Assembly (NCBI GenBank): GCA_035506175.1
Contig: DATJPZ010000049.1
Span: forward strand, 13,356 to 77,355
Reading direction: 5' to 3'
Length of the DNA: 64,000 nt
Origin: Thermoanaerobaculia bacterium
GTDB taxonomy: Bacteria; Acidobacteriota; Thermoanaerobaculia; UBA5066; Gp7-AA6
A program made the position numbers and the translations under genes. The notes beneath the pieces were generated by a model. It was not told where the DNA came from and did not search any database. It worked only from the letters and a program-made list of their open reading frames with translations. Positions 2,801 through 58,846 of this stretch are shown one piece after another; positions within the stretch are counted from its first letter, which is position 1, and each line of letters opens with the position of its first letter.

Positions 2801-3964
2801 ATGAGCGGCGCCGCGGTTTCGACGCCGCGGACCGACGAGACCGGCGCGGCGCCGATCCCGGAGCTCGACGGCGTGCGCGGGGTCGCCATCCTGCTCGTGC
2901 TCCTGTTCCACTTCCAGGGCGCCCGGCCTCCCGGTTTTCCGAAGCTGCTGACGTACCCGATGATCCTCGGCTGGTCGGGCGTCGACCTGTTCTTCGTCCT
3001 CTCCGGGTTCCTGATCACGCGGATCCTGATCTCCACGCGCCGCGCCGCCAACTACTTCTCGGCGTTCTACGCGCGCCGGGTGCTCCGGATCTTTCCGCTC
3101 TACTTCGTCGCGGTATTCCTCTTCTTTCGCGTGGCCCTGCCGCTCGCGGCGCGCTGCGGCTGGGACCTTCAGACCGACCCGGGGCTCGAGCCCTGGTTCT
3201 GGTTCCACTTGTCCAACGGCCCGTCTTCCTTTGGACGCGACGCGCGGCCGCTGTCGCACTTCTGGTCGCTCTCGATCGAGGAGCAGTTCTACCTGGTGTG
3301 GCCGGCCGTCGTGCGCGCGGTGTCGCCCCGGTGGCTGGGCGCGGTGTGCGCCGGGGCAGCGGCGCTCGCCGGCGGGCTGCGGGTGGCCGCGGCGGCGCGA
3401 GGCGTGACCCCGGAGGCCCTCCACCGGCTGACGTTCTTCCGCATGGACGCGCTGGCGCTCGGCGGGCTCGTCGCGTGGATCGCGGTGGATCCCGTTCGGC
3501 GGGCCCTGTTGCGGCGCCGGCTCCCGACGGCCTGGACCGCGAGCGGCCTGATCCTCGCCGGCCTGTGCGTCGTCGGGCGCGGCGCCGTCTCTCCCGTGAT
3601 GACGCGCTTCGGCTACACGGCCTTCGCCCTCTTCTATGCCGGGCTCGTCTTTGCCGCGTTCGACCGCGCGGGTTCGCCGGGGGTTCTTTCGCGGACGCTG
3701 CGGTGGCCGTGGCTGCGCGCCTTCGGCAAGTACAGCTACGCGATGTACGTCTTTCACTATCCCGTGGCGCTGGTCGTGGATCGACTCGCTCCGGGCGCGG
3801 GCCTCTCCGGCCTCGCGCGGACCGTCGCCTGGCTCGCTTCGGTGATCGGCGGCATCGCCGTGTCGTTCCTCTTCGCGCTCGTCTCCTGGAACGTTCTCGA
3901 AAAGCGATTCCTCGTCTTCAAGGGCCGGTTCGTGGCACGGCCGGTTCCGGCGGCCGCGCGGTGA
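2801..3964 (+). CDS. Acyltransferase family 3 (OafA/YrhL-like) membrane protein
   Basis: 387 aa; motifs VRGVAILLVLLFH, DLFFVLSGFLIT, LYFVAVFLFF. Confidence 0.8.
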   Translation: MSGAAVSTPRTDETGAAPIPELDGVRGVAILLVLLFHFQGARPPGFPKLLTYPMILGWSGVDLFFVLSGFLITRILISTRRAANYFSAFYARRVLRIFPLYFVAVFLFFRVALPLAARCGWDLQTDPGLEPWFWFHLSNGPSSFGRDARPLSHFWSLSIEEQFYLVWPAVVRAVSPRWLGAVCAGAAALAGGLRVAAAARGVTPEALHRLTFFRMDALALGGLVAWIAVDPVRRALLRRRLPTAWTASGLILAGLCVVGRGAVSPVMTRFGYTAFALFYAGLVFAAFDRAGSPGVLSRTLRWPWLRAFGKYSYAMYVFHYPVALVVDRLAPGAGLSGLARTVAWLASVIGGIAVSFLFALVSWNVLEKRFLVFKGRFVARPVPAAAR

Positions 3965-7087: not shown

Positions 7088-7160
7088 CGTCGCCCCTCCG
7101 GCTGCCGAAAAACAGCGCAGCCTAGCACACGGCCGCCGGCGCGGCCTGCGGGGCGGGGCT

Positions 7161-7166
7161 TAGAAT
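7161..7166 (+). promoter_or_regulatory. Putative -10 hexamer TAGAAT 9 nt upstream of the hutH ATG (leaderless or very short leader)
   Basis: Sequence gcTTAGAATgccgggcgcATG; the same GTAGAAT motif recurs at five other gene 5' ends. Confidence 0.35.
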
Positions 7167-7175
7167 GCCGGGCGC

Positions 7176-8696
7176 ATGAAGCGGCTGCGCCTGAGCGGGT
7201 CGGACCTCACGCTGGCGGATCTCGTCGCGGTATCCCGGCGCGAGGCCCGTGCGAGCCTCTCGCCCGCCGCGAGGCGCGCGATGGCCGCCTCCCGGCGCGT
7301 GGTGGACCAGGCGGTGCGCGGCGGCGCGAAAGTGTACGGCGTGACGACCGGCTTTGGAAAGTTCGCCGACGTCGCCATCCCGCGGGGCGAGCTCGAGACC
7401 CTGCAGAAGAACCTCGTCCGGAGCCATGCGGCGGGTGTCGGCGACCCGCTCGGCGAGCCGGCGGTTCGCGCGATGATGCTGCTGCGGGCGAACGCGCTGG
7501 CGCGGGGCAACTCCGGCATCCGCGTGACGACGGTCGAGACCCTGCTCGCCATGCTCGCCGCCGACATCCTGCCCGTCGTGCCGGCGCAGGGCTCGGTCGG
7601 CGCCTCGGGGGACCTCGCGCCGCTCTCGCACCTGGCGCTCGGGCTCCTCGGCGAAGGCCGGGTGCGCGTCGGCACACGGGAAACGTCCGCCGCGCAGGCG
7701 CTGCGGCGCGCCGGCATCCGGCCCGTCGCGCTGGCGGCGAAGGAAGGACTCGCGCTGATCAACGGCGTGCAGATGTCGGTCGCGGTCGGCGGCCTCGCGC
7801 TCGCGCGGGCGCTCGAGCTCTCCCGCGTGGCCGACGTGCTCGGCGCCGCCTCGCTCGACGCGTCGCGGGGCTCGGACACGGCGTTCGACCCTCGGATCGT
7901 CGCGGCCCGACCCCATCCGGGCGCCGCGGCCAGCGCCCGGAACCTGCGCTCCCTCCTGCGCGGCAGCGCGATCCGCGAGTCGCACCGGGGCTGCGGCCGC
8001 GTTCAGGACAATTACGCGCTGCGCTGCATGCCTCAGGTGCACGGGGCCGCCCGCGACGCCTTCGACCACGCGCGCGGCGTCCTCGAGCTCGAGATGAACA
8101 GCGCGACGGACAACCCGCTGGTCTTCGCCGGCCGCCGCGGCGACATTCTGTCGGGCGGCAACTTCCACGGGGCGCCCGTCGGCCTCGTCCTCGATTACGC
8201 GGCCATCGCGGCCACGGACCTCGCGTCGATCTCGGAGCGCCGGATCGAGAAGCTCGTGAACCCGGCGCTGTCGGAGCTGCCGGCCTTCCTGGTCCGGGAG
8301 GGCGGCCTCCACTCGGGCCTCATGATGGCGCAGGTCACCGCGGCCGCGCTCGTCTCGGAGTGCAAGGTCCTGGCACATCCCGCGTCGGCGGATTCGATCC
8401 CGACCTCGGCGGCGAAGGAGGACCACGTGTCGATGTCGCCGATCGCGGCGCGCAAGCTCGCGGCGATCGTGGCGAACCTCGAACGCGTCCTGGCGATCGA
8501 GGCGATCGCGGCGTTTCAGGCCATGGAGTTCCTGCGGCCGCTGACCTCGTCGGTGCCGCTCGAGGCGGTCCGGCGCGCGTTCCGCCGGGCGGTTCGCCCC
8601 TGGAACCGGGACCGGGAGATGCATCGCGACATCGAGGCGGCGCGCCGGTTCCTCGGCGGCGACGCGATGAGCCGGGCCATCGCGAGGCTCGCCTGA
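7176..8696 (+). CDS. hutH: Histidine ammonia-lyase
   Basis: GSVGASGDL (Ala-Ser-Gly MIO-forming triad), GVTTGFGKFA, NPLVF. Confidence 0.93.
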   Translation: MKRLRLSGSDLTLADLVAVSRREARASLSPAARRAMAASRRVVDQAVRGGAKVYGVTTGFGKFADVAIPRGELETLQKNLVRSHAAGVGDPLGEPAVRAMMLLRANALARGNSGIRVTTVETLLAMLAADILPVVPAQGSVGASGDLAPLSHLALGLLGEGRVRVGTRETSAAQALRRAGIRPVALAAKEGLALINGVQMSVAVGGLALARALELSRVADVLGAASLDASRGSDTAFDPRIVAARPHPGAAASARNLRSLLRGSAIRESHRGCGRVQDNYALRCMPQVHGAARDAFDHARGVLELEMNSATDNPLVFAGRRGDILSGGNFHGAPVGLVLDYAAIAATDLASISERRIEKLVNPALSELPAFLVREGGLHSGLMMAQVTAAALVSECKVLAHPASADSIPTSAAKEDHVSMSPIAARKLAAIVANLERVLAIEAIAAFQAMEFLRPLTSSVPLEAVRRAFRRAVRPWNRDREMHRDIEAARRFLGGDAMSRAIARLA

Positions 8697-8735
8697 CGCC
8701 CGGCGCCGGACGAGCCCGCGTCCTATAATCGCCCC

Positions 8736-10406
<1,671 letters not shown>

Positions 10407-18644: not shown

Positions 18645-18696
18645 CGTTTCTCGGGGCGCGGCGGCCGCCGCGGCCTTGGGGCTATGCTAGCACCCC

Positions 18697-22709: not shown

Positions 22710-22802
22710 GTATTCGCCCTCCTTTCAGGTGCTGACACCATATTCCACTTTGGCGGGGACAAGTGATGTCCGGGCGGAGCCGGTTAAACTCTCCTGCAAC
22801 AC

Positions 22803-25745: not shown

Positions 25746-27020
25746 TTAGGACGGAACGGCGCGCCGCAGCTCGAGGAGGAGCCGGGCGAGCGAGCTGCCG
25801 AGCGCGCTCGCCGCGATCTCGAGGGCGCGGTAGTCGTCGTCGGAGACGGGCGCGCCGAGGCGGTCGGCGTAGAGGAACGCGACGAGGCGGTCCTTGATCC
25901 GCACCGGATAGACCGCGCACGAGGCGGCGGCCTTGTCGCCGAGCAGCGCCGCGAGCTTCGGCGGCATCAGGATCCGCGAGAGCGCGCCGCGATGCGGCGA
26001 GCCCGAGAGCTTCACGAAGGCGAAAATGGACGGCTCGCCCCAGGGCAAACGAATGCCCGACACCTGGTCTCGCGTCAACCCGGAACCGCGCGCCGTCCAG
26101 CCGCGGATGCCGTCCTGAGCCGACGTCAGGAGCATCGCCCGCGGGAGGCGTCCGCACACGGTCTCGAGCGTCGACTCCGCGAGACGATCCCGACCGGGTC
26201 CGCGCGGATCGGGCGCGGCCGCCTCGGCCGCCTCCGCCCGCGGCGCCCACATCTCGCTGACCGCGGCATCCTCGGATTCCGCCGGCTTCCACATCCGGTC
26301 GGCGAGCTCGTCCGGCGTCAGCGGGTGCGGCGGTTCGAAATCCGGCAGCAGATCGGGGGCATCGGCGATCTCGCTCGACGCGTGCTCGGCCGAAAGGAAC
26401 GGCGCGGCGTAGCTGACCGAAACGGGCGGCCCGGCGGCGCCGGCGCCCGGGGAAATCGGAATCGGCCGCCCGCGGAAATTGACGAAGCGCCCCTGCAGCG
26501 ACGCCGGCTGCGTCGCCCGGGCCCGGTAGAGGCGCCGCTCTTCGTTGCGCTCGAGCTTATGGAGGACGCCGCGGAACTCGATCGGGATCGGGCGTCCGTA
26601 GAAGAGGTGAAACGCCTGGAGCAGTCGCACCTCGGAGATCACGGCGGGGATGACGGGGCGGCTCGTCACCGCGGAGATCTCGTCGACGGCGGCGAGGTTC
26701 GACGGATTCTTGAACGCGACGCGCACGCCGCGACCCTCGAGCGCGTAGGGCACGGCCGCGAGCCGCACGGCCGCGCGCTCGGGCAGGAGACGGACGACCT
26801 GCGGCGGCGCCTTGAGGATGTCCGACCACGAGACGTAGTCGCAGCGATGGATCGCGGAGAGCGCGCGCAGAAGATTCTCTTCGCCGAGCAGATCGCGGTC
26901 GAGCAGGATGGTGCCGAGGCGGAACGGCTCGCCCGTGTGTCGCTGGAATCCGAGGGCGCTCTGGACCGCCGTTTCGGACACGACGCCGTCGGCCACGAGG
27001 AGCTCGCCGATGCGCGGCAT
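25746..27020 (-). CDS. MshEN/T2SSE_N (GspE N-terminal) domain protein, paralog 1
   Basis: N-terminal about 140 aa match the GspE/MshE N-terminal domain (IGELLVADGVVSETAVQSAL...CDYVSWSDI...RVAFKNPSNLAAVDEI); Pro-rich linker; conserved C-terminal domain shared with paralog 2. Confidence 0.65.
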   Translation of the reverse strand: MPRIGELLVADGVVSETAVQSALGFQRHTGEPFRLGTILLDRDLLGEENLLRALSAIHRCDYVSWSDILKAPPQVVRLLPERAAVRLAAVPYALEGRGVRVAFKNPSNLAAVDEISAVTSRPVIPAVISEVRLLQAFHLFYGRPIPIEFRGVLHKLERNEERRLYRARATQPASLQGRFVNFRGRPIPISPGAGAAGPPVSVSYAAPFLSAEHASSEIADAPDLLPDFEPPHPLTPDELADRMWKPAESEDAAVSEMWAPRAEAAEAAAPDPRGPGRDRLAESTLETVCGRLPRAMLLTSAQDGIRGWTARGSGLTRDQVSGIRLPWGEPSIFAFVKLSGSPHRGALSRILMPPKLAALLGDKAAASCAVYPVRIKDRLVAFLYADRLGAPVSDDDYRALEIAASALGSSLARLLLELRRAVPS

Positions 27021-27049
27021 GTCGGGATTCTACTTTTTTTCGAAATCCC

Positions 27050-27319
27050 CTACGGAAGGTCGCGCAGGTCCTTTCCCGGTTTGAAGCGGATCGTGTTGCC
27101 CGGGGGGATGGAGACCTCGACGCCGGTCTTGGGGTTGCGGCCGATGCCGCGCTTGCGGCGCTTGACCTGGAAAACGCCGAAGCCCCTCAACTCGATTCGA
27201 TCCCCGGCGCCGAGCGCCGAGCGCATCGCTTCGATCACCGTCTCCACGGCCGTCGCGGCCTTGGCGCGCGGGATCTGGGCGAGGTCGACCACCCGGTCCA
27301 CGATGTCCGCTTTGATCAT
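27050..27319 (-). CDS. IHF/HU family DNA-binding protein
   Basis: GFGVFQVKRRKRGIGRNPKTGVEVSIPPGNTIRFKPGKDL. Confidence 0.9.
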   Translation of the reverse strand: MIKADIVDRVVDLAQIPRAKAATAVETVIEAMRSALGAGDRIELRGFGVFQVKRRKRGIGRNPKTGVEVSIPPGNTIRFKPGKDLRDLP

Positions 27320-27341
27320 GCTCCCTCCGGGATTGGGAGAA

Positions 27342-28673
27342 TTATATAACCTGCTTTTTCTTCAATCGGATGGACGCCGCGAGGGCCGCGGCCGCCGCCC
27401 CGGCCAGCTCCCGCAGGTAGGTCAGGTCGGCCGGGCTTGCGCCCTGGGCCCCGGCGCATTCGGCATACAAAAAGGCTACGGTTTTTTCGCGCATGCGCAC
27501 GGGTTGGACGACGCATTCGGCCGGCCATCCGCCGAGCGCAGCGGCCAGAGCGTCGTGGCGTGGCAAAGGCGGCAGGGGCCCCAGGTAAAAGGCCTGTCCC
27601 ATCTTGATGTTGAGGAAGACGGAGGGTTCCGACCAGGGGATTTCGAGTTCCCGAATCGCCCGGATGTCGACGCGTTCTCCGGCCCCGCTCCAGCCCGCGA
27701 CCGAGTCGGGCCGGGAGGCAAAGACGGCGCTGCGGGCAAAACGCCGCCGGAGCGCCCGCAGGGCTGCGTCGAAGACGCCGTCGCGATCCCGCGCGGCCAG
27801 CATTTCGCCGAAGTCTGTCGGGGTGGGCATTCCGGAGGGGGGCGCCGACGCCTCGCGGGCCGGGGCGCTGCTGCGGCGCCACTGACCCGGCGCGCTCGGG
27901 GCGGGAACGGGACGCGGCGGCTCCGGCGAGGCCGGCACGGGTGAGGCGTGGGGCTCCGCCCCGGGCATCTCCTCCCACGGAATCGACTCCAGGTGCTCGT
28001 CCGTCGCCCCTTCGGCCGGCGGCGGCGGGAGCCCGCCCCAACCGACCGGAGGCAGGTCGGGCACGACCCAGGCCGGGGCGGATGGGCTCTCGCCCGTCTC
28101 GCGGGAAGCGGCGGGGGGAGGTTCTCCCGGCATCGGCGGCCCGACCGGGGCCGAGAAGTCGGGGGGTGGCGGCAAGGGCTTCCGCACGACCGCCGGGGCC
28201 ACCGGCCGGGACAACTTTTCAGCGAGGATCGCGAAACGAGGACTGCGCCGCTCTCCGTAACACTTTTCGAGGGCCTGGTAGATGCGCACCTCCGGGGCGA
28301 CCGCGGGAACGATCTTCTTGCCGGTGACGAAGAAGAGCTCGTCGAGGATTCGAAGGTTCGAGGGGTCGCGCAACGCGACCCGGACGAACCCCTCGCCGAC
28401 CTCGACCGGGACCGCGGAGTGGCGGATGGCGAACTTCGCCGGGAGCGACGCGACGACCGAGCTCGGGACGCCGCCGAGAATTTTCCAGGGGATGTAGTCG
28501 CAGCCGTGCTGTTCCGCCAGCGCTCTGCCGACGTCGTCTTCGGACACGGAGCCGCGCTCGAGCAGAAGCGTCCCCACGCGTCCGCCCGTGAAACCCTGAA
28601 CGGCGAGGGCGCGGTGCACGTTCTCTTCGCTGACGGCACCGGCCCGGACCAGAAGCACTCCGAGTCGCGGCAT
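27342..28673 (-). CDS. MshEN/T2SSE_N domain protein, paralog 2
   Basis: Start set at internal ATG 28673 (MPRLGVLLVRAG aligns with paralog 1 MPRIGELLVADG); the longer track ORF to 28841 adds a non-homologous basic leader; C-terminal domain homologous to paralog 1. Confidence 0.6.
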   Translation of the reverse strand: MPRLGVLLVRAGAVSEENVHRALAVQGFTGGRVGTLLLERGSVSEDDVGRALAEQHGCDYIPWKILGGVPSSVVASLPAKFAIRHSAVPVEVGEGFVRVALRDPSNLRILDELFFVTGKKIVPAVAPEVRIYQALEKCYGERRSPRFAILAEKLSRPVAPAVVRKPLPPPPDFSAPVGPPMPGEPPPAASRETGESPSAPAWVVPDLPPVGWGGLPPPPAEGATDEHLESIPWEEMPGAEPHASPVPASPEPPRPVPAPSAPGQWRRSSAPAREASAPPSGMPTPTDFGEMLAARDRDGVFDAALRALRRRFARSAVFASRPDSVAGWSGAGERVDIRAIRELEIPWSEPSVFLNIKMGQAFYLGPLPPLPRHDALAAALGGWPAECVVQPVRMREKTVAFLYAECAGAQGASPADLTYLRELAGAAAAALAASIRLKKKQVI

Positions 28674-28816
28674 GAACGTTTCGATTATCGCGTACCCGGC
28701 GCGGAAACGAGCCGCCGATCGGCGGGAGTGCTTCGCTTTCAACGGCTTCGCCGCGACGCTTACCGGCGCGACACGTGCGGCGGCCCGCGACCCGCGAACG
28801 AACGTGCTAAATTGCC

Positions 28817-30730
28817 GTGGTGACGCTGATCTGCGCGGCACTGCTCGCCGTCCTGCCGCTCGCCGGCCCCTCGGGAACCTCCACGAGCGACCCGATCATG
28901 GAGAGCCGGAAGGCTTTTCTGGCGGCACGCCTCGCCGTCGTCGACGGCCGCTATCAGGAGGCTCTGGCGCTCTATCGGAAGGTCCTGACCGTCCTTCCGA
29001 ACGATCCGATCGTGCACCTCGAGTACGCCCAGCTCCTGCGGGACCTGAATGTCGCCGAGGAGGCGACGCGCCAGGCCCGGGACGCGGTGCGGCTGGACCC
29101 CAACCTGGCCGAGGCGCGGCGGCTGCTCGGGACCCTCGAACTCGCCGCGGCGGACAAAGACCCGTCGCGACTACCCGCGGCCATCGACGAGCTCGCCGCG
29201 GCCCATCGACTGGCGCCGAACGACACGGGCACGTCCGTCGCCCTGGCGCGGGCCCTGCTCGCCGGCGACCGCGCGGCCGAAGCCGCGGCGATCCTCGACG
29301 AGCTGCCGGAGCTTTCCGGGCAGCCGGCGATCGAACGCCTCACCGCGGAGGCCAAGGCCAAGAGCGGTCAGTATCGCGAGGCCGAGGAGATCTACCGCGC
29401 GCTCTGGGAGGCCGACCCGGGAGACCGCGAGATCGCGGCGGCCCTGATCGACCTGTACGAGGACGAGGACAAGCTCGACGACGCGCTCGCCGTGCTCGAA
29501 ACGCTGGCGACGCGCGACCCGGAAAATCCCGCCGTGGCCGAGCGGATCGTTCTCGACCTGGCGCGCGCGGGACGCTTCCCGGAGTCCGAGCAGAAGGCGC
29601 GGCAGCTCGTCGCGAAGCGCCCGGAGAACCGGGCCGGGCAACGCCTCCTGGCGACGGTTCTCTTCGAGCGGGACAACCCCGCCGAAGGCGAGAAGATCCT
29701 CCGCGCGCTCCTGGAAGCGGATCCGGACGACCCGACGACGCGCCGGGCGCTCGCCGCGGAGCTCGTCCGCGAGCGGCGGTTCGACGAGGCTCGAGCGATG
29801 TACGAGGACCTGATCAAGCGGACCGGCGCCGACGGCGCGAAGGGGGCCGAAGTGGCCCAGTCCGCCAGCGTCGAGCTCGGCTTCATCGCCTACCTCCAGC
29901 GCGACTACGCCGGGGCGCGGCGCATCCTGACGCCGCTCGCGCTGTCGAACGGTCAGGTCCACGACCGGGCCGCCCGCATCCTGCTCGCCGCCGATCGCGA
30001 CGGGGAGGATTTCGCGGCGGGCATGGACAGCGCGAAGGCTTTCGCCGCGGCCAGGCCGTCGGATCCGGAGTGGGAGGCAGAAACGGCGGAGTTCCGTTTC
30101 CGGCTCGGCGAGACGGCCGCCGCGGCGGCCGCGCTCGACGCCCTCGGCGCGTCCGGCCAGCTCGAGAAGATGACGGCGGCCGCCGACGCGTACGCGCGGC
30201 TGAAGAAGTACGACGCCGCCGTCCGGATCTCGCGCGAGGCGGCGGCGAAGTTCCCCGAGTCGACCGACGCTCTGTTTCGCCTGGGGTCGAGCCTCGAGCG
30301 GGCGGGCGACGGCGCGCAGGCCGAGAAGGTTTTTCTGCAGCTGCTCGAGCTTCGCCCGAACGACGCCGCGACGCTGAACTACCTCGGCTACATGTGGGCG
30401 GACCAGGGCGTGCAGCTCGAACGGGCGCGGGAGATGCTCGAAAAAGCCGTCGCGCGCGAGCCGCGCAACGCCGCCTATCTGGACTCGCTCGGCTGGGCCT
30501 ACTTCCGGCTCGGCCAGATCCAGAGCGCGGAGAAAAACCTCCGCGAGGCGTACCGGCGCGAGCCCGCGGATCCGACGATCGAGGAGCACATCGGCGACCT
30601 CGAGGCGCGGCAGGGCAACGTCGAAGGCGCGATCCGTCACTGGGAGAAGGCTCTCGAGCTCAAGCACGAGGAGCCCGATCGCGTGCGCCAGAAGCTTCAG
30701 CACGCGCGGGCGCCCGTATCCCAGCGTTGA
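28817..30730 (+). CDS. TPR-repeat protein with N-terminal signal peptide
   Basis: 637 aa; multiple TPR units (AYLDSLGWAYFRLGQ etc.); signal VVTLICAALLAVLPLAG. Confidence 0.75.
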   Translation: MVTLICAALLAVLPLAGPSGTSTSDPIMESRKAFLAARLAVVDGRYQEALALYRKVLTVLPNDPIVHLEYAQLLRDLNVAEEATRQARDAVRLDPNLAEARRLLGTLELAAADKDPSRLPAAIDELAAAHRLAPNDTGTSVALARALLAGDRAAEAAAILDELPELSGQPAIERLTAEAKAKSGQYREAEEIYRALWEADPGDREIAAALIDLYEDEDKLDDALAVLETLATRDPENPAVAERIVLDLARAGRFPESEQKARQLVAKRPENRAGQRLLATVLFERDNPAEGEKILRALLEADPDDPTTRRALAAELVRERRFDEARAMYEDLIKRTGADGAKGAEVAQSASVELGFIAYLQRDYAGARRILTPLALSNGQVHDRAARILLAADRDGEDFAAGMDSAKAFAAARPSDPEWEAETAEFRFRLGETAAAAAALDALGASGQLEKMTAAADAYARLKKYDAAVRISREAAAKFPESTDALFRLGSSLERAGDGAQAEKVFLQLLELRPNDAATLNYLGYMWADQGVQLERAREMLEKAVAREPRNAAYLDSLGWAYFRLGQIQSAEKNLREAYRREPADPTIEEHIGDLEARQGNVEGAIRHWEKALELKHEEPDRVRQKLQHARAPVSQR

Positions 30731-32611: not shown

Positions 32612-32687
32612 TGGGGCGTCGCCAAACTGGTAAGGCACCGGCCTTTGGAGCCGGCATTTCTAGGTTCGAATCCTAGCGCCCCAGCCA
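32612..32687 (+). tRNA. tRNA-Gln (anticodon UUG)
   Basis: Cloverleaf folded by hand: acceptor UGGGGCG/CGCCCCA, anticodon stem CCGGC/GCCGG, loop CUUUGGA, T-arm CTAGG-TTCGAAT-CCTAG, encoded CCA. Confidence 0.85.
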
Positions 32688-33456: not shown

Positions 33457-33481
33457 ACCGGCGGCCCGGCGCGCCGCGAAC

Positions 33482-33510
33482 GGCCCCGAGCCCTCGGGGC
33501 CGTTTTTCTG
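33482..33510 (+). terminator. Rho-independent terminator downstream of the PKD gene
   Basis: GGCCCCGAG-cc-CTCGGGGCC hairpin followed by gTTTTTcTgTT. Confidence 0.7.
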
Positions 33511-33560
33511 TTCGGCGCGAGGTCGACGCGCGGCAGATTCCCGCGTAGAATCCCGCTCGC

Positions 33561-34520
33561 TTGACGTCGCACGCCTTCAACTACGGAGACCTCAAAATCT
33601 TCTCCGGCCGGGCGCACCCGGCCCTCGCGCGGGAGATCTGCGCATACCTGCAGATTCCGCTCGGCGAGCTGACGCTCTACAACTTCTCCGACGGCGAGGA
33701 CTACTGCCAGATCGACGAGAACGTCCGCGGCGCCGACGTCTTCGTCGTGCAGCCGACCTGCTCGCCGGTCAACGACCACGTCATGGAGCTGCTGATCCTC
33801 CTCGACGCCTTCCGGCGCTCGTCGGCGTCGCGGATCACGGCGGTGATGCCCTACTTCGGCTACGCGCGCCAGGACAAGAAGGACAAGCCGCGCGTGCCGA
33901 TCGCGGCCAAGCTCATGGCGGACCTGCTGACGGCGGCGGGCGCGGACCGCATTCTGACGATGGACCTGCACGCCGCCCAGATCCAGGGCTTCTTCAACAT
34001 TCCGGTCGACCATCTCTTCGCCGCGCCGGTCATCCTCGACGCGATCCGCAAGATGGACTTCGAGGACCTCGTGATCGTCTCGCCGGACGTCGGCGGCCTG
34101 ACCCGGGCACGCGCGATCGCCAAGCGGCTGGACGTGGCGCTCGCCGTCATCGACAAACGGCGCACGGGCAAGAACGAGACCGAGATCCTCAACGTCGTCG
34201 GCGAGGTCGAGGGTAAGGACGCGCTGATCCTCGACGACATCATCGACACCGCCGGCACGCTCGTCCAGGCCGAGGAGGCACTGCGCCGGCAGGGGGCGCG
34301 CCGGACCTACGCCGCGGCCGTGCACGGGGTCTTTTCCGGCCCCGCCCTCGAGCGCATCGAGGCCTCGGGGCTCCAGAGCCTCCTGGTCAGCAACACGATC
34401 CCGGTCGAGGCCGCCATGGCCCGCTGCCCGCGGATCCGGGCCCTGTCCGTGGCCCCCCTCCTGGGGGAGGCCATCCAGCGCATCCACGACGGGGCTTCCG
34501 TTTCCTCGCTTTTTGTGTAG
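33561..34520 (+). CDS. prs: Ribose-phosphate pyrophosphokinase
   Basis: TTG start 9 nt after TAGAAT; DLHAAQIQGFF, PRPP-binding loop LILDDIIDTAGT. Confidence 0.9.
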   Translation: MTSHAFNYGDLKIFSGRAHPALAREICAYLQIPLGELTLYNFSDGEDYCQIDENVRGADVFVVQPTCSPVNDHVMELLILLDAFRRSSASRITAVMPYFGYARQDKKDKPRVPIAAKLMADLLTAAGADRILTMDLHAAQIQGFFNIPVDHLFAAPVILDAIRKMDFEDLVIVSPDVGGLTRARAIAKRLDVALAVIDKRRTGKNETEILNVVGEVEGKDALILDDIIDTAGTLVQAEEALRRQGARRTYAAAVHGVFSGPALERIEASGLQSLLVSNTIPVEAAMARCPRIRALSVAPLLGEAIQRIHDGASVSSLFV

Positions 34521-34628
34521 AATCCGCCTCTTTGCGCGGGGGTGCCGCGCGGGTGACGCGGCGAGGGAACGACGCGTCGGAGCCGGGGCCGAGCAGCGAG
34601 GACCGGGCTCCGAGAAGAGGTGCAAGGA

Positions 34629-35330
34629 ATGAAGACCATCGAACTTTCGGTCGAGAAGCGCTCGACCATCGGCAAGAACGAGGCCCGCCGCGAGCGGGCC
34701 GCCGGCCGCATTCCGGCCGTGGTGTACGGCGCCGGCAAGCCCAACGTGCCCATCTCGGTGGACCGCAAGGCCCTGTCGGACGTGTTCCGCGAGGGCGCCG
34801 GGGAAAACGCGATCTTCCTGTTGAAGCTCTCCGGCTCGGACCAGAGCCGGCACGCGATGATCCGGGAGATGCAGCGGGATCCGGTGTCGCGCAGGCCGCT
34901 CCACATCGACTTCGTCCGCGTCCTGATGGACGTCAAGATCACGGTCAAGGTGCCGATCGAGGTCCTCGGCGTCGCGCGCGGCGTCAAGACGGACGGCGGC
35001 ATCCTGGACGTCGTCACCCGCGAGGTCGAGATCGAGTGTCTGCCCGGGAACATCCCGGCGCACCTGGGCGTGGACGTGGCCGACCTCGGGATCGGCGACG
35101 CCATCCGCGTCTCCCAGGTCACGGCCCCGGAGGGCGTGCGCATCGTCGACAACCCGGAGAAGGTCGTCGTCCACGTCGCGCATCCGACGCGCGAAGAGGA
35201 GCCGGTCGCCGCCGCGGAGGGCGCCGCCGAGCCCGCAGAGCCCGAAGTGCTCAAGAAGGGCAAGGCCGTCTCCGAGGAAGAGGGCGCCGAGGAGAAGGGC
35301 GAGAAGAAGGAGAAGGAAAAGGAGAAGTAG
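34629..35330 (+). CDS. rplY: 50S ribosomal protein L25 / general stress protein Ctc
   Basis: MKTIELSVEKR...IPAVVYG L25 N-domain, lysine/glutamate-rich C-tail; start could also be GTG 34620. Confidence 0.85.
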   Translation: MKTIELSVEKRSTIGKNEARRERAAGRIPAVVYGAGKPNVPISVDRKALSDVFREGAGENAIFLLKLSGSDQSRHAMIREMQRDPVSRRPLHIDFVRVLMDVKITVKVPIEVLGVARGVKTDGGILDVVTREVEIECLPGNIPAHLGVDVADLGIGDAIRVSQVTAPEGVRIVDNPEKVVVHVAHPTREEEPVAAAEGAAEPAEPEVLKKGKAVSEEEGAEEKGEKKEKEKEK

Positions 35331-40579: not shown

Positions 40580-40613
40580 TCGCCGCGCTTATGCTATAAG
40601 CGGCGGTTCATCC

Positions 40614-43257: not shown

Positions 43258-43388
43258 GAGGCGATCATACCGCCGGGCTCCGGCGCGGCGTTCCCCCGCC
43301 GCGAATCTCTCCTTCGGCCCCGGCCCGACGGAGTCGGCCCGGGCTCCGGCGCGGCGTTCCGCCGCCGCGAATCGGGTACACTGACGTC

Positions 43389-49810: not shown

Positions 49811-49915
49811 TGCAGCGGCAGATCATCCAAATCCCGGAGACGGGGGTCGGGGCGCACCGTCGTGAGCCCGGCCTCGACCCCGGCCCCCGCCGCCTTCACC
49901 CCGTGTAGAATGGGG

Positions 49916-50320
49916 GCGGCCCCGAGCGGGCCACGCGATCGCTCCGGTCTCCTTTCAACGAGGAGCCGGAGAGGAAAGTCCGAACTCCACACGGGCAGCA
50001 TGCCGGGTAACGCCCGGTCGCGGCGACGCGAAGGAAAGTGCCACAGAGAACAGACCGCCTTCCGAAAGGACGGCAAGGGTGAAACGGTGCGGTAAGAGCG
50101 CACCGCTCCGCCGGCAACGGCGGGGGCACGGTAAACCCCATGCGGAGCAAGGCCAAATAGGGAGGCAGCGGGCGCCCGTCCCGCCTCACCAAAAGTGAGC
50201 TGTCTCCGGGTCGGCTGCTCGAGCCCGAGGGCGACCTCGGGCCCAGAGGAATGATCGCGACCCCGGCCGGCACAACCGGCCGGGACACGGGATTCGGCTT
50301 ACCGGTCCGCTCGGGGCTTT
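49916..50320 (+). ncRNA. rnpB: RNase P RNA, bacterial type A
   Basis: Universal motifs GAGGAAAGUCCG and AGGGUGAAACGGUGCGGUAAGAGCGCACC, ACAGAACC..CGGCUUACCGG 3' region; P1 pairing 49919-49932 with 50304-50317; TAGAAT -10 at 49906-49911. Confidence 0.85.
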
Positions 50321-50390
50321 TCTGGATCGGTTTCGGGGTTTCCGGGTTTCCGGGACTGGGGTTGCGCTCGAGGACGGCGGTGGAGAGACC

Positions 50391-52177: not shown

Positions 52178-54136
52178 GTGGGCCCCGCGCGCGCCGAGAA
52201 GCTCGCGGCCGAGGGATTCCGGACGATCGGCGACTTCCTGCTCGCGTTGCCGTTCCGGTACGAGGACCGCCGGCGCTTCGCGACGATCGCCAGCCTCGAA
52301 TGGGACCGTCCGGCGACGGTCCTCGTGACCTTCCGGGGCGTGCGGTCGGTGCGGATGCGCCGCGGGCTGCTGCGCGTCGAGGCGCTCGCCGACGACGGCA
52401 CCGGGGCGGTCCGCGTCGTCTGGCACAACCGGTATCCATCCTTCGCGAAGGCGCTCGACGGCGCGCGGGCCGCGCTCTACGGCGCTCCGACGGCGTCGTC
52501 CAGGGGCGAGATGCGGATCGAGAACCCCGAGACCGAGTTCATCGCGGCGGGCGAGGAGGCGGACCCCGTCCACTCGGGGCGCGTCGTCGGCGTCTACCAT
52601 CGGGCGGCCGACGTCGGTACACGGCTCTGGCGCAGCCTCGTGCGGAGAACGCTCGACCGCCTGAGCCCGGGCTTCGCCAGCGCGGCGGCCGCCGCTCCCG
52701 CAATCCGCTCGGCGCTCGAGGAGGCGCACTTCCCGTCCTCGGAAGAGGCGGCGGGGGCCGCCCGGCGGCTGCTGGCGCAGGAGGAGCTCCTCGTCCTGGC
52801 CTCCGGCATCGAGGAGAAGCGGGCGCGCCTCCATGCGCGCCGCGGGATCCGGCTCGAAGCCAGCGACGCGTTGCGCCAGCGCACGCGCGAGGCCCTGCCG
52901 TTTTCGCTCACGGGCGCCCAGCGGCGCGCCGTGCGCGAGATCGCGGCCGACCTCGCCTCGGGACGCGCCATGGCCCGGCTCCTCCAGGGCGACGTCGGGT
53001 CGGGCAAGACGGTCGTGGCGGGACTCGCCCTGATGCTGGCCGCGGGCAACCGCGTCCAGGGGGCGCTCATGGCGCCCACCGAGATCCTCGCCGAGCAGCA
53101 CGCCGAGAGCCTCGCGTCGTGGCTGACCGGGGCCGGCGTGCGCCTGGCACTCCTGACCGGGCGCGTGCGCGGCGCCGCGCGCCGCCGCCTGCTCGAGGAG
53201 CTCGCCTCGGGACGAATCGACGTCCTCGTCGGCACGCACGCGCTCGCGGAGGCGCCGGTGACCTTCCGGCGGCTCGGCCTCGTGGTCGTGGACGAGCAGC
53301 ACCGCTTCGGCGTGGCGCACCGCGCGCGCCTGTTCCGGAAGGGCGACGCGCCCCACGTCCTCGTCATGACCGCGACGCCGATTCCCCGGTCCCTCGCGTG
53401 GGCGATCTACGGCGAGCTCGACGTCTCCGTCCTCGACGAAAAGCCCCCCGGGCGCGGCGAGATCGTCACGCGGGTGCGCGACGAGGAAGGGCGGGCGAAG
53501 GTCTACGCGTTCGCCGCCGAGCGGGTCGCGGCCGGCGAGCGGGTTTACGTCGTCGTCCCGGCAATCGAGGAGGGGGAACGCGAGGTGGCGGCCACGCGCG
53601 CGACGGCGCGGCGGCTCGCGGAGGCCCTCCCCGGCGTCCGCGTCGAGGTTCTCCACGGCCGGATGCCGGCGCCCGACCGCACCACCGTGCTGCGGGACTT
53701 CGCCAGCGGCCGCGCCCCGGTCCTCGTGTCGACGACGGTCGTCGAGGTCGGGGTGGACGTGCCCGAGGCGACGCTCATGGTCGTCGAAAACGCCGAGGTG
53801 TTCGGGCTCGCCCAGCTCCACCAGCTCCGCGGCCGCGTCGGCCGGAGCACGCGCGCATCCTGGTGCGCGCTGATCGCGGGGCCCGGGGCGACGCCGGAGG
53901 CCCGCCAGCGCCTCGCCGTCCTCGAGCAGACGTCGGACGGCTTCGCGATCGCCGAGCGCGACCTCGAGGCGCGAGGTCCGGGCGACCTGCTCGGCAGCCG
54001 CCAGTCCGGCCTGCCGGCAATGCGCGTGGCGGATCCCGTTCGGGACCTCGCGGCCCTCGGGGAGGCGCGGCGGCGGGTGGCGGCCCTTCGCGAGGCGGGA
54101 CAGGCGGTGCGGAGCGACCTGTTCGGGTATCCGTAG
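52178..54136 (+). CDS. recG: ATP-dependent DNA helicase RecG
   Basis: GVGPARAEKLAAEGFRTIGDFLLALPFRYEDR wedge region, Walker A GDVGSGKT, DEQHRFGV, QLRGRVGR; GTG start with AGGA 7 nt upstream. Confidence 0.92.
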   Translation: MGPARAEKLAAEGFRTIGDFLLALPFRYEDRRRFATIASLEWDRPATVLVTFRGVRSVRMRRGLLRVEALADDGTGAVRVVWHNRYPSFAKALDGARAALYGAPTASSRGEMRIENPETEFIAAGEEADPVHSGRVVGVYHRAADVGTRLWRSLVRRTLDRLSPGFASAAAAAPAIRSALEEAHFPSSEEAAGAARRLLAQEELLVLASGIEEKRARLHARRGIRLEASDALRQRTREALPFSLTGAQRRAVREIAADLASGRAMARLLQGDVGSGKTVVAGLALMLAAGNRVQGALMAPTEILAEQHAESLASWLTGAGVRLALLTGRVRGAARRRLLEELASGRIDVLVGTHALAEAPVTFRRLGLVVVDEQHRFGVAHRARLFRKGDAPHVLVMTATPIPRSLAWAIYGELDVSVLDEKPPGRGEIVTRVRDEEGRAKVYAFAAERVAAGERVYVVVPAIEEGEREVAATRATARRLAEALPGVRVEVLHGRMPAPDRTTVLRDFASGRAPVLVSTTVVEVGVDVPEATLMVVENAEVFGLAQLHQLRGRVGRSTRASWCALIAGPGATPEARQRLAVLEQTSDGFAIAERDLEARGPGDLLGSRQSGLPAMRVADPVRDLAALGEARRRVAALREAGQAVRSDLFGYP

Positions 54137-54192
54137 AATGCGCGTCGACGCCGCGGGGTCGGCGTGATAGAAGCCCGTGGATCGGAGGAGCA

Positions 54193-55176
54193 ATGAAGGT
54201 TCTCGTCACCGGCGGCACCGGTTTCGTCGGAACCCACCTCGTCAACCGCCTGTTGCGTGCCGGACACGCGGTCGCCGTGCTGGCGCGCGACCCGCGCCGG
54301 ACGCGGAACCGCTACAACCGCGAGGTCGAGACCGCCGAAGGCGACGTGCTCGACCGCGCCTCGCTCGAGGCGGCGGCGCACGGGCGCGACGCGGTCGTGC
54401 ACCTGGTCGGGATCATCAACGAGAAGGGCGCCCAGACGTTCGACCGGATGCACCGCGAGGCCACCGAGAACGCCGTCGCCGCGGCCGAGGCGGCCGGCGT
54501 GCGCCGCTACCTCCACATGAGCGCGATGGGAAGCGCCGAAGACTCCCCCTCCGAGTACGGCCGCACCAAGGCGGCGGGGGAGCGGGCGGTTCGGGCCTCG
54601 AAGCTCGACTGGACCATCTTCCGCCCCTCGATCGTCTTCGGGCCGGGAGACGGGTTCGTGTCGCTGCTGGCCCCGATCGTCCGGCACAACCCGGGGTTCA
54701 TTCCGGTCATCGGCGACGGCCGGACGAGGTTCCAGCCGGTCTCCGTCAGGGACGTCGCCCGGGTCTTCGCGGACGCGCTCGCCAGACCCGAGACGGTCCG
54801 GCACACGTTCGAGGTGGGGGGCCCCGAGGTGTTCACCCTCGACGCGATCTACCGCGAGATCGCCGCCGCGGTCGGGAAGCCGGGAAAGCCCCTCGTGCAT
54901 TTTCCCCTCTGGTACGGCCGGCTTCTCGCGGCCGCCTTCGAACGGCTCGCGCGGTACGGGCTGTTCGACGACCCGCCCCTGACGCGCGACCAGCTCAAGA
55001 GCCTCGGGCGCGATAACGTTGCCGACGTGTCGGCGACCGTCGCCGCCTTCGGCGGAGATTGGAAAACCTTCCGCCCGGGAATTCGCGAATACCTCTCCAC
55101 CGGGCTCCACGACCCGCGTTCCGGGACGGGCGAAGAGGTGGCGCTGGAACCCCGGGCGATCCTGCGGATCCGCTAG
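54193..55176 (+). CDS. NAD(P)-dependent epimerase/dehydratase-family (NmrA/complex-I NDUFA9-like SDR) protein
   Basis: GGAGGAG SD; MKVLVTGGTGFVGTHLV Rossmann N-terminus; YGRTK. Confidence 0.75.
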   Translation: MKVLVTGGTGFVGTHLVNRLLRAGHAVAVLARDPRRTRNRYNREVETAEGDVLDRASLEAAAHGRDAVVHLVGIINEKGAQTFDRMHREATENAVAAAEAAGVRRYLHMSAMGSAEDSPSEYGRTKAAGERAVRASKLDWTIFRPSIVFGPGDGFVSLLAPIVRHNPGFIPVIGDGRTRFQPVSVRDVARVFADALARPETVRHTFEVGGPEVFTLDAIYREIAAAVGKPGKPLVHFPLWYGRLLAAAFERLARYGLFDDPPLTRDQLKSLGRDNVADVSATVAAFGGDWKTFRPGIREYLSTGLHDPRSGTGEEVALEPRAILRIR

Positions 55177-57205: not shown

Positions 57206-58180
57206 TCAGAAGGACATCGCCTTCAGCGCCGACGCCGCCTTCGCGCGGACGAAGCCGTTTTCCTGCGGGTCGACCGCTTTCTCTTTGAGCGATTCGATCG
57301 TGCTCGCATCCGGCGACTGGCGCGCGGCGGCCGCCAGCGCGTCGATGGCCGCGAGCCTCACGGCGGGGTTCTTGTCCGACTTGAGCGCCTGGAGGAACGC
57401 CGCGCGGATTTCGGGCGTCGACTGGAACGACGCGAGCGTGTCGGCGGCCTTCTTGCGAACCCCGGGGTTGCCGTCGGCCCTGAGCGTCGAGGTCAGCGCG
57501 GCGACGATCTCGGGCGAGGCCGGCGCCGCGTTCGTCCCGTAGTGTTCGGAGACGACCTCGATCGCGCGCGACTTCTCCCCGGCGCTCTCGGAGTTGTGTG
57601 CCACGAGATAGGCGAGGAGCTTCGCGACCTCCGGGTCGTTCGGCTTGCCTTCGACTTCGCGGCGCGTCGTGACGTCGAACCCGATCGCGACGCGGCCGTC
57701 CTTGTCCGCCGGGCGATAGGAGACGTTGGCGAGGCGCGGGTTGCCGGCAAGCCCCGGAACTCCCGCCGCGCCGGGGGCCGTCGGCGTGACGGCGGCCACG
57801 GGCCAGGAAGGAGAGGCCGCGGGCGAGGCGGAGTCGCGGCCCGGAAGACCTCGCGCGAGGAGATAGCCGACGCCCGCGGCGGCGACGAGCGCCGCCGCCT
57901 GGAGGAGCGGGCGCCGGAACGTCGGCGTCGGCCGGAAGGCTTTGACGCGGCCTCGAATCATCTCCTCTTCGAGGAGCCCGAGCGTGCGGCGCCGGAACTC
58001 GGGCGTCACCTCGGGCTCGGGATCGCGGCCGAGCGTCGTCCAGAGCTCTTCGAGCCTTTCGAGGTCGCGGCGGCAGCTTTCGCAGGCGTCCACGTGAGCG
58101 TCGAGCTCGCGGCGCGAGGCCTCGGAGGCCTCGCCGGTCAGGCGTTCGATCCCAAGCGTCGTCAGGTCGCGGCAGTCCAT
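57206..58180 (-). CDS. Anti-sigma factor (ZAS zinc-finger H-x3-C-x2-C, one TM helix, periplasmic HEAT-like repeats)
   Basis: Start set at internal ATG 58180 (MDCRDLTT...ELDAHVDACESC); overlaps the sigma-gene end by 19 nt; HEAT-like repeats (NPGVRKKAADTLA, NPAVRLAAIDALA). Confidence 0.7.
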   Translation of the reverse strand: MDCRDLTTLGIERLTGEASEASRRELDAHVDACESCRRDLERLEELWTTLGRDPEPEVTPEFRRRTLGLLEEEMIRGRVKAFRPTPTFRRPLLQAAALVAAAGVGYLLARGLPGRDSASPAASPSWPVAAVTPTAPGAAGVPGLAGNPRLANVSYRPADKDGRVAIGFDVTTRREVEGKPNDPEVAKLLAYLVAHNSESAGEKSRAIEVVSEHYGTNAAPASPEIVAALTSTLRADGNPGVRKKAADTLASFQSTPEIRAAFLQALKSDKNPAVRLAAIDALAAAARQSPDASTIESLKEKAVDPQENGFVRAKAASALKAMSF

Positions 58181-58731
58181 GAGCTCTCTCCCTCGGAAAA
58201 ACGGGCCTTCAGGGTTTCGACGGCCCGGAAGATGCGGGTCTTGACGGCGCCGACCGAGATGCCGAGCGTCTTCGCGATCTCGGCGTACGGCATGCCGTGG
58301 TAGCGGGCGAGCACGAGGGCCTCGCGCTGTTCTTCGGAGAGCTCCGACAGCGCCTGGCGCACGGCGGCGCGCCGCTCGCGGGAGGCGATGACGGACTCGA
58401 CGCCCTCGGTCCGGGCGCGCGGCTCGGCGACCGACTCGAGGGGCACCACCGCGGCCCGGCGCTCGCGGCGCCGCCGGTCGCGGCACGCGTTGGCCGCGAT
58501 GGCGAAGAGCCACGACGCCACGCCGGCGCGTCCGTCGTACTGGTGCGCTCTCGAAATCACCTTGAGAAACACCTCCTGGGTCACTTCCTCGGCCGACGCC
58601 CTGTCCGACAGCATCCGGTCGGTGAATCGCAGGAGGGCCGGCGCATAGCGTTCGAAGAGCTCCGCCGCGCCGTCGGTGTCCCCACGGCGGATCCGCTCGA
58701 GGAGACCCGCGTCGTCGCTTCCCGCGTTCAT
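58162..58731 (-). CDS. RNA polymerase ECF (sigma-70 family group 4) sigma factor
   Basis: Region 2 (FERYAPALLRF..., EVTQEVFLKV) and region 4 (LSEEQREALVLARYHGMPYAEIAKTLGISVGAVKTRIFRA). Confidence 0.88.
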   Translation of the reverse strand: MNAGSDDAGLLERIRRGDTDGAAELFERYAPALLRFTDRMLSDRASAEEVTQEVFLKVISRAHQYDGRAGVASWLFAIAANACRDRRRRERRAAVVPLESVAEPRARTEGVESVIASRERRAAVRQALSELSEEQREALVLARYHGMPYAEIAKTLGISVGAVKTRIFRAVETLKARFSEGESSWTAAT

Positions 58732-58846
58732 CGGTTATCGGCCCGGCCATCTGGAGAGACGGCGGCCCGGGGGGAAGGTTTCGGCGTCACGAGGCACAAT
58801 CTACGGCTTTTTGACGCCTCGGAACCCCCTGTATAGTGCCGCCTGT

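Follow-up and report, generated by a model that had tools for sequence, protein, structure and literature searches.

A probable TANNNT-type -10 element, commonest as TAGAAT, before predicted leaderless and near-leaderless genes of a Thermoanaerobaculia genome

The hexamer TAGAAT occurs six times in a stretch of 64,000 nucleotides (nt) from a Thermoanaerobaculia soil bacterium (phylum Acidobacteriota; GenBank assembly GCA_035506175.1, contig DATJPZ010000049.1, positions 13,356 to 77,355), which is referred to as the window and has a G+C content of 72%. Five copies lie on the forward strand, at 7161, 33546, 34518, 49906 and 54134, and one on the minus strand, at 27027. A sequence-only reading of the window had proposed that TAGAAT is a promoter -10 element, placed so near to several genes that their mRNAs would have little or no leader. 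A motif count over the window found its six coordinates to be exact, and the distances it gave hold as well: 9 nt to hutH, 9 nt to prs, 6 nt to the first of two MshEN-domain genes, and 7 nt to the P1 helix of the RNase P RNA, rnpB. Its gene names are backed by Pfam, which confirms hutH, prs, the two MshEN-domain genes, rplY (L25/TL5) and recG. For the present analysis, a map of 59 genes was built with a codon log-odds model, and every upstream region was inspected. The window was compared with relatives at 61-88% protein identity, among them syntenic 20-kb loci (designated by L numbers) of about 70-80% identity, which were reached via two neighbouring proteins. The 10 kb flanking the window on each side in the same genome (20 kb, 20 genes), taken from a 369-kb contig (ERZ27256600 k141_1400147), served as a held-out sample.

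The hutH gene, encoding histidine ammonia-lyase (7176-8696, forward strand; Pfam Lyase_aromatic, E = 1e-189, domain from residue 11), is preceded by TAGAAT at 7161-7166, 9 nt before its ATG at 7176. No GGAG or GAGG is found upstream of this start, and the mRNA is predicted to be near-leaderless. Among distinct hutH relatives (65-87% amino acid identity, about 70% G+C, metagenomic), 20 of the 22 carry a TANNNT hexamer 6-10 nt before an ATG, GTG or TTG, in the forms TAGAAT, TAGCTT, TACAAT and TATGAT, and more distant ones have tgcGAGAAT at a spacing of 8-9 nt. The hutU gene shows a related arrangement, with TATAAT at 8724-8729 (forward strand), 6 nt before GTG 8736, and is predicted to be leaderless. 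The protein read from this GTG has its Urocanase_N domain beginning at residue 12, and in 13 distinct relatives TATAAT, TAGAAT, TATACT or TACAAT lies 6-8 nt before an ATG or GTG.

The promoter region of prs (33523-33551, forward strand) consists of a -35-like TCGACG, a 17-nt spacer and TAGAAT, and the TTG start at 33561 lies 9 nt further on. Directly before it stands the intrinsic terminator of the preceding gene (33478-33505, forward strand), a 12-bp stem followed by a T-run. In nine relatives, TAGAAT, TATAAT, TACAAT or TATGAT is found 7-10 nt before the conserved TTG. The closest prs loci come from metagenome-assembled genomes (MAGs) of Thermoanaerobaculia; in other Thermoanaerobaculia, prs begins with ATG, has a GGAG leader and lies just after a tRNA gene. 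The window contains a tRNA-Gln gene at 32612-32687.

On the minus strand, TAGAAT at 27027-27032 lies 6 nt before the ATG (27020) of MshEN-domain gene 1, which is predicted to be leaderless. The hexamer is kept 6-7 nt before the ATG in five of five genomes, although the spacer differs. At hutH (7161-7163), prs (33546-33548) and MshEN-1 (27030-27032, minus strand), the first three letters of the hexamer, TAG, form a stop in frame with the gene, two to three codons before the start, so that the annotated start is the first one possible. A hand count revealed no specific preference for in-frame spacing of this TAG, as spacings divisible by three made up about 72% of the TAG-containing and 65% of the other hexamers.

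The fourth gene-proximal site precedes a non-coding RNA. A class A RNase P RNA is encoded at 49919-50317 on the forward strand (Rfam RF00010, 274 bits). The Rfam match covers 49923-50317, and pairing of GCCC (49919-49922) with GGGC (50314-50317) extends P1 by 4 bp, to 49919; a T-run follows. TAGAAT at 49906-49911 would place the transcription start at G49918 or G49919. A search for rnpB by blastn in the first 160 loci gave no match, and four relatives were found through the adjoining NYN-domain gene. In all five genomes a TANNNT hexamer (TAGAAT, TACCAT, TAGTCT, TACCCT or TAAACT) is separated by exactly 11 nt from Rfam position 1 and by 7 nt from the extended P1, and three of the four weaker hexamers (TAGTCT, TACCCT and TACCAT) are preceded by TGn. 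This geometry ties the hexamer to the predicted 5' end of the RNA without recourse to any start-codon call, and the earlier view of rnpB as independent support for TAGAAT as a -10 element is thus upheld in five of five genomes. As a separate observation, the 3' strand of the extended P1, GCTCGGGGC (50304-50325), runs into TTTTCT in the window, where the relatives have TCTTT, and the P1 helix may double as the rnpB terminator.

Two further copies of TAGAAT overlap stop codons. At 34518-34523 (forward strand) the hexamer includes the prs stop (TAG 34518-34520) and lies 105 nt before the rplY ATG at 34629. It is probably the -10 element of rplY, judging from the sequences compared, with a leader of about 98 nt and the Shine-Dalgarno sequence aagaggtg. 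The sequence ttttgtgTAGAATcc at this site is conserved in L001, L167 and L002. In L002 a TGA terminates prs at an earlier point, and ttttgtgTAGAATcc is still present, now in intergenic DNA. The position given for this site in the sequence-only reading was right, and the site is conserved in these three relatives. The rplY leader (34524-34628) also contains a GC-rich hairpin, gcgcgggg..ccgcgc, right after TAGAAT, which is kept in the same three loci (in L167, upstream of position 3606); the length of the leader varies from about 37 to 105 nt, and the hairpin might be an L25 autoregulatory structure. The last copy, at 54134-54139 (forward strand), overlaps the recG stop (TAG 54134-54136), 53 nt before the ATG (54193) of a short-chain dehydrogenase/reductase (SDR)/epimerase gene.

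Counted by itself, TAGAAT is modestly enriched in the window, with six copies against 2.04 +/- 1.37 in shuffled sequences (2 of 100 shuffles reach six), and GTAGAAT occurs five times against 0.70 expected, a number reached by none of 100 shuffles. No common -35 or longer context beyond g/TAGAAT/c was found around the six sites. A string shared by two of them, cttccgt, was dropped, as its distances differ. The enrichment becomes clear once the broader pattern TANNNT is counted. Of 65 such hexamers on both strands, 36 fall at least partly in non-coding DNA, which amounts to 3.5 kb, or 5.5% of the window. A TANNNT hexamer lies 5-10 nt before the start codon in 9 of 58 window genes, compared with about 0.2-1.8 expected by chance, with five genes at the most frequent distance, 6 nt, and three at a second peak of 9 nt. 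None of these nine genes has a GGAG/GAGG Shine-Dalgarno core upstream, versus 22 of the 49 others. In the held-out flanks, TANNNT precedes the called start by 7-10 nt in 4 of 20 genes, namely acn (aconitase), ccsA, hemB and udg, in agreement with the 15-20% of the window. A control with decoy motifs also ranked TA...T at the top (nine genes); this control is weak, because several decoys, such as T..A.T and AT..T., are sub-patterns of the same element, and it was replaced by the distance histogram, the coding and non-coding TANNNT counts, the held-out flanks and the conservation tests.

Conservation in the relatives is the strongest evidence, and it includes a search that assumed no motif. When every gapped pattern of three letters was ranked over the 18 nt before the start in 48 non-identical relatives, TA...T came first, with 46 of 48, and the best unrelated pattern, CGC, reached 29 of 48. 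This search is the unbiased test of the element; at the 67 sites that we collected, T1, A2 and T6 are present in all, but this is forced, since each site was picked as TANNNT. At the inner positions of the 67 sites, position 3 is G in 26 and T in 26, A stands at position 4 in 50 sites and at position 5 in 44, and the commonest hexamers are TAGAAT (20) and TATAAT (12). At orthologous positions the hexamer keeps T1, A2 and T6 while the spacer sequence drifts, and the start codon swaps between ATG, GTG and TTG at the same place. Furthermore, weak hexamers are often accompanied by TGn, as in TAGCTT and GAGAAT (hutH relatives), TAGTCT, TACCCT and TACCAT (rnpB), TAAATT (a TPR gene) and TAGGCT (purA). 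The comparison thus supports the view of TAGAAT as a -10 element, except that the true element is broader than the single hexamer and is better written as TANNNT or TA(G/T)AAT.

Besides the genes named in the sequence-only reading, six more are of the leaderless type: hutU, mutS, the TPR gene, a zinc-ribbon gene, uvrC and an M50 protease gene. In mutS, TATGCT on the forward strand lies 8 nt before GTG 18697, and in five of five genomes a GTG follows this hexamer after 6-9 nt, in frame despite N-terminal extensions of 30 or 36 nt. Pfam domain boundaries back the upstream starts of both hutU and mutS. The TPR gene has an extended element, gTGcTAAATT (hexamer at 28808-28813, forward strand), 6 nt before GTG 28820, and TGcTANNNT, 6 nt and GTG recur in four of four genomes. 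The zinc-ribbon gene (71 amino acids) carries TATGAT at 43264-43269 on the minus strand, 6 nt before ATG 43257; the element is kept in three of three genomes, with the start changed from ATG to GTG in L162. Also present in three of three genomes is TACACT of uvrC (43377-43382, forward strand), 6 nt before GTG 43389. Like the zinc-ribbon gene, uvrC is predicted to be leaderless. The M50 peptidase gene, with TATAGT at 58832-58837 (forward strand), 9 nt before TTG 58847, is predicted to be near-leaderless, and across four genomes TATAGT lies 8-9 nt before TTG, TTG, TTG and GTG.

The same type of hexamer is also found farther from the start codon, before genes with a Shine-Dalgarno sequence. The HU gene, which serves as a leadered control, has TATAAT at 27341-27346 (minus strand), 21 nt before ATG 27319, with GGAGG in between, and this arrangement is invariant in five of five genomes; the promoter region gattgaagaaaaagcaggttaTATAAT as such is invariant across the five. 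The purA gene, divergent from hutH, serves as another leadered comparison: its extended element TGcTAGGCT (hexamer at 7119-7124, minus strand) lies 31 nt before GTG 7087, its leader carries GGAGGGG, and the hexamer is kept as TAGTCT in L081, L082 and L084. Other leadered genes with a clear Shine-Dalgarno sequence are ssb (TATGGT, 27 nt) and a gene of 73 amino acids (TTGAAA-17-TAGACT, 59 nt). A hexamer far upstream combined with a Shine-Dalgarno sequence in HU, ssb, purA and the 73-amino-acid gene indicates that the organism uses both leadered and leaderless architectures.

The invariant T, A and T with variable bases between them, the association of TGn with weak hexamers, the geometry at rnpB and the terminator before prs all fit a sigma70-type -10 element. 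We consider it highly probable that TAGAAT is the commonest local form of the housekeeping sigma70-type -10 (TANNNT, TA(G/T)AAT) and that its gene-proximal sites give rise to leaderless or near-leaderless mRNAs. From the observed position of the motif, its enrichment, the absence of Shine-Dalgarno sequences and the conservation in relatives, we infer where transcription starts and how translation proceeds. In Escherichia coli promoters, transcription starts at the 7th to 8th base after the hexamer. A start about 7-8 nt after the hexamer would apply here as well, and the 7-nt distance between hexamer and P1 of rnpB is consistent with it. With a spacing of 6 nt before ATG or GTG, as in MshEN-1, hutU, uvrC, the TPR gene and the zinc-ribbon gene, the first transcribed base (+1) would be the first base of the start codon, and the mRNA would be leaderless. 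With a spacing of 8-10 nt, as in hutH, prs, the M50 protease gene and mutS, a leader of 1-3 nt would result, probably starting at G; when the spacing-9 sites were read by eye, position 7 or 8 was G in most of them. Neither class has a Shine-Dalgarno sequence, and translation would proceed by direct recognition of the 5'-proximal start codon. Before rnpB and rplY, the same element would drive ordinary transcripts, in one case an RNA starting at the P1 helix, and in the other an mRNA with a leader of about 100 nt. The earlier proposal of leaderless mRNAs for hutH, prs and MshEN-1 is supported in that these genes appear leaderless or near-leaderless and have no Shine-Dalgarno sequence, but at 9 nt a leader of 1-3 nt is predicted, so that hutH and prs would not be strictly leaderless. 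In the 84 kb sampled, about 15-20% of genes, or roughly a third of transcription units, show the predicted leaderless pattern.

Several points weigh against this interpretation. A TTGACA-like -35 hexamer 16-18 nt upstream is absent at most sites, with only three two-hexamer matches in 60 kb, prs among them. The sequence-only reading had already remarked that -35 elements are not obvious, and of its sites prs alone has TCGACG-17-TAGAAT. Spacings of 9-10 nt do not place +1 on the start codon, and of the nine window candidates, seven begin with ATG or GTG and two, prs and the M50 protease gene, with a conserved TTG. The gene map comes from a home-made codon-usage caller, the relatives are not phylogenetically independent, so that counting sites gives too high a figure for separate events, and we found no mapping of transcription start sites in any Acidobacteria in the literature. 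Finally, the TAGAAT at 54134 has no counterpart at the orthologous place in three syntenic relatives (L162, L163 and L164). The earlier assignment of this copy to the SDR gene was correct in its position and fails in conservation; on sequence grounds its promoter status is doubtful, and it may possibly be a chance occurrence. As for the missing -35, high-GC bacteria and extended -10 promoters commonly do without one, and its absence does not exclude membership of the sigma70 type.

The hexamers could instead be A/T-rich translation signals, that is, a ribosome- or S1-binding patch other than Shine-Dalgarno, about 10 nt before the start, in mRNAs with longer leaders. Their fixed short distance to the start codons of genes that have no Shine-Dalgarno sequence would suit such a role, and the TTG starts of prs and the M50 protease gene are hard to square with classical leaderless initiation. 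However, the same element stands 7 nt before the non-coding rnpB in five of five genomes, and also far upstream of the Shine-Dalgarno-led HU, ssb, purA and rplY. That T1, A2 and T6 alone are invariant, while the inner bases vary, points to recognition by a sigma factor and not to A/U richness, as does the pairing of TGn with weak hexamers. Together with the terminator directly before the prs element, and the modal spacing of 6 nt, which would make the initial A or G of the start codon the expected +1, these observations make a translation signal very unlikely. We give an equally low probability to gTAGAATcc serving an alternative sigma factor as its specific -10, or a regulator as its binding site, with hutH, prs, MshEN, rnpB, rplY and SDR together forming one regulon. 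The functions of these genes are unrelated, the flanking g and cc are not conserved, and orthologous sites swap TAGAAT freely with TATAAT, TACAAT, TATGAT and TAGCTT, even though the excess of GTAGAAT (five against 0.7 expected) and the exact TAGAAT in five of five MshEN-1 orthologues would be expected of a dedicated site. Moreover, the motif is one mismatch off the housekeeping consensus, and a probable promoter of the extracytoplasmic function (ECF) type in the window, GAAACC...CGTCTC, looks quite different.

The least credible explanation, in our judgement, is chance, in the sense that A/T-rich hexamers gather in the less GC-rich intergenic DNA, or arise where a TAG stop codon is followed by AAT. 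Such an origin would account for the modest enrichment of TAGAAT alone, which is equalled in 2 of 100 shuffles, for the use of a stop-codon TAG at two sites, and for the site at 54134, which is not conserved. It does not account for a position and a T/A/T identity that 46 of 48 diverged orthologous regions have kept, for the sharp distance peak at 6 nt, or for the held-out flanks, which behaved as predicted; in L002, the element at the end of prs is even kept after the stop codon moved. Chance is already contradicted for all sites except 54134.

For the housekeeping -10 reading, the TTG starts deserve separate attention. Near the hexamer, TTG starts (16 sites) are all 7-10 nt away, with a mode of 9 nt, and never at 6 nt, which is the modal distance for ATG and GTG. 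The carriers are prs (33561), the M50 protease gene (58847) and a clade of hutH (L095 and L097-L099), and the pattern, resting on three gene families, is suggestive. RNA polymerase prefers a purine as the first base, and the absence of TTG at spacing 6 fits this preference. In Deinococcus deserti, TTG was found on none of 916 mRNAs with 0-nt leaders and on 3 of 258 with leaders of 1-5 nt (PMC4007540). We tentatively propose, on the basis of these spacings, that Thermoanaerobaculia may possess a conserved class of near-leaderless mRNAs starting 1-3 nt 5' of UUG (prs, the M50 protease gene and the hutH clade), a possibility which we hold to be real and still rather improbable. If true, ribosomes would initiate efficiently at a 5'-proximal UUG without a Shine-Dalgarno sequence, or these genes would be deliberately throttled. 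Such a use of UUG has almost never been seen in model bacteria with mapped leaderless transcriptomes, and would be a small oddity.

Some neighbouring elements resemble the main type in part. MshEN/GAF gene 2 has a -10-like cgcGATAAT (hexamer at 28684-28689, minus strand), 10 nt before ATG 28673, and in five of five genomes GATAAT or CATAAT lies 10 nt before ATG-CCG-CGA. The two paralogous MshEN-domain genes, which both begin with MPR(I/L)G and one of which has a GAF domain, flank the HU-family gene, and this layout (25746-28841, minus strand) is kept in L165-L168. TAAACT of murJ (22785-22790, forward strand) lies 12 nt before ATG 22803, with a short leader that has no Shine-Dalgarno sequence, and murJ relatives have TAGAAT at 10-13 nt.

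A heptamer, TATGCTA, which reads as TATGCT on one strand and TAGCAT on the other, separates the genes of two divergent pairs, mutS/tsaD and uvrB/PBP (penicillin-binding protein), and is kept in all relatives examined. At 18683-18689, the overlapping minus-strand TAGCAT is 39 nt before tsaD. At 40590-40596, TATGCT is 18 nt before uvrB ATG 40614 on the forward strand, TAGCAT is 11 nt before the PBP ATG 40579 on the minus strand, and the heptamer is conserved in three of three genomes. Both heptamers resemble the symmetric -10 elements of bidirectional promoters (bioRxiv 10.1101/2020.01.31.928960), a likeness that here concerns sequence and conservation. Around the putative bidirectional -10 of uvrB/PBP, an imperfect palindrome, GCTTAT-GCT-ATAAGC (40587-40601), is conserved in L162 and L163, and might have an additional role as an operator upstream of uvrB, perhaps that of a DNA-damage regulator.

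The SDR/epimerase gene is preceded, at 54164-54196, by the sequence cGTGATAGAAGC, which L162 and L163 retain. The window's copy starts an open reading frame of 10 codons, whose TGA overlaps the SDR ATG (ATGA), and the public gene call for SDR in L163 begins at the GTG of cGTGATAGAAGC; it could be an upstream open reading frame or a promoter-like element, TGnTAGAAG. The ECF-type sequence mentioned above, GAAACC...CGTCTC, is located at 58756-58782 (minus strand), 5' of the ECF sigma gene (58162-58731), and is conserved in the window, L162, L163 and L164. It precedes an operon of ECF sigma factor, anti-sigma factor and DUF4097 protein, is clearly unlike the TANNNT sites, and looks like a typical autoregulated ECF-type promoter.

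A leaderless signal of this kind is already established in bacteria and predicted for the phylum, and the lineage is the new part. In the study of Zheng et al. (2011), the signal is a TANNNT hexamer whose first T is found some 12 bp 5' of the translation start, in genes without a Shine-Dalgarno sequence, and it is read as the -10 element of leaderless mRNAs; such TA-led genes were predicted in silico in three of three Acidobacteria genomes, where they make up 9.7-19.4% of genes (PMC3160421). The genes reported here, 9 of 58 in the window and 4 of 20 in the flanks, are similar to these TA-led genes. The class Thermoanaerobaculia, here known from MAGs, lay outside that data set, and our evidence is conservation in orthologues, site by site, instead of a genome-wide statistic. 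Leaderless architecture has been confirmed by differential RNA sequencing in D. deserti (PMC4007540), mycobacteria, Corynebacterium and Streptomyces. Like D. deserti, mycobacteria and Streptomyces, in which many mRNAs start within 5 nt of AUG or GUG, the window combines a high G+C content with a TAnnnT -10 and a poor -35; unlike in D. deserti, prs, the M50 protease gene and the hutH clade keep TTG 7-10 nt after the hexamer, and the transcription starts are predictions from sequence.

The housekeeping -10 consensus of Streptomyces and other actinobacteria is TAGAPuT. TAGAAT fits this consensus, and the sites collected here have G as often as T at position 3, although the phylum differs; by analogy, the likeness is probably a shared consequence of high G+C on a TATAAT-type element. 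In E. coli, the primary transcript of rnpB starts at the mature 5' end of M1 RNA. The rnpB of the window is similar, as its -10 is placed so that +1 would be the first base of P1, and the 3' strand of P1 with its U-run is terminator-like; it differs in having a P1 with 4 bp more than the Rfam consensus and a 5' end that is a predicted one.

The findings have a practical consequence for gene annotation. Public gene calls in MAGs of this lineage start too far 3' for hutU (524 instead of 556 amino acids; L169/L170 position 18237, equal to window position 8832) and mutS (841 instead of 851 amino acids; L165-L168), and the zinc-ribbon gene is shortened in L162 (3886-4095). These calls begin at a downstream ATG and miss the GTG 6-9 nt after the conserved -10. 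As the starts of leaderless genes are mis-annotated systematically, annotation of the lineage should use a leaderless-aware start model. For the Acidobacteriota, the analysis gives a concrete, conserved promoter model, TA(G/T)AAT without a -35 and with an occasional TGn, and roughly every sixth gene of this Thermoanaerobaculia genome probably does without a Shine-Dalgarno leader in translation.

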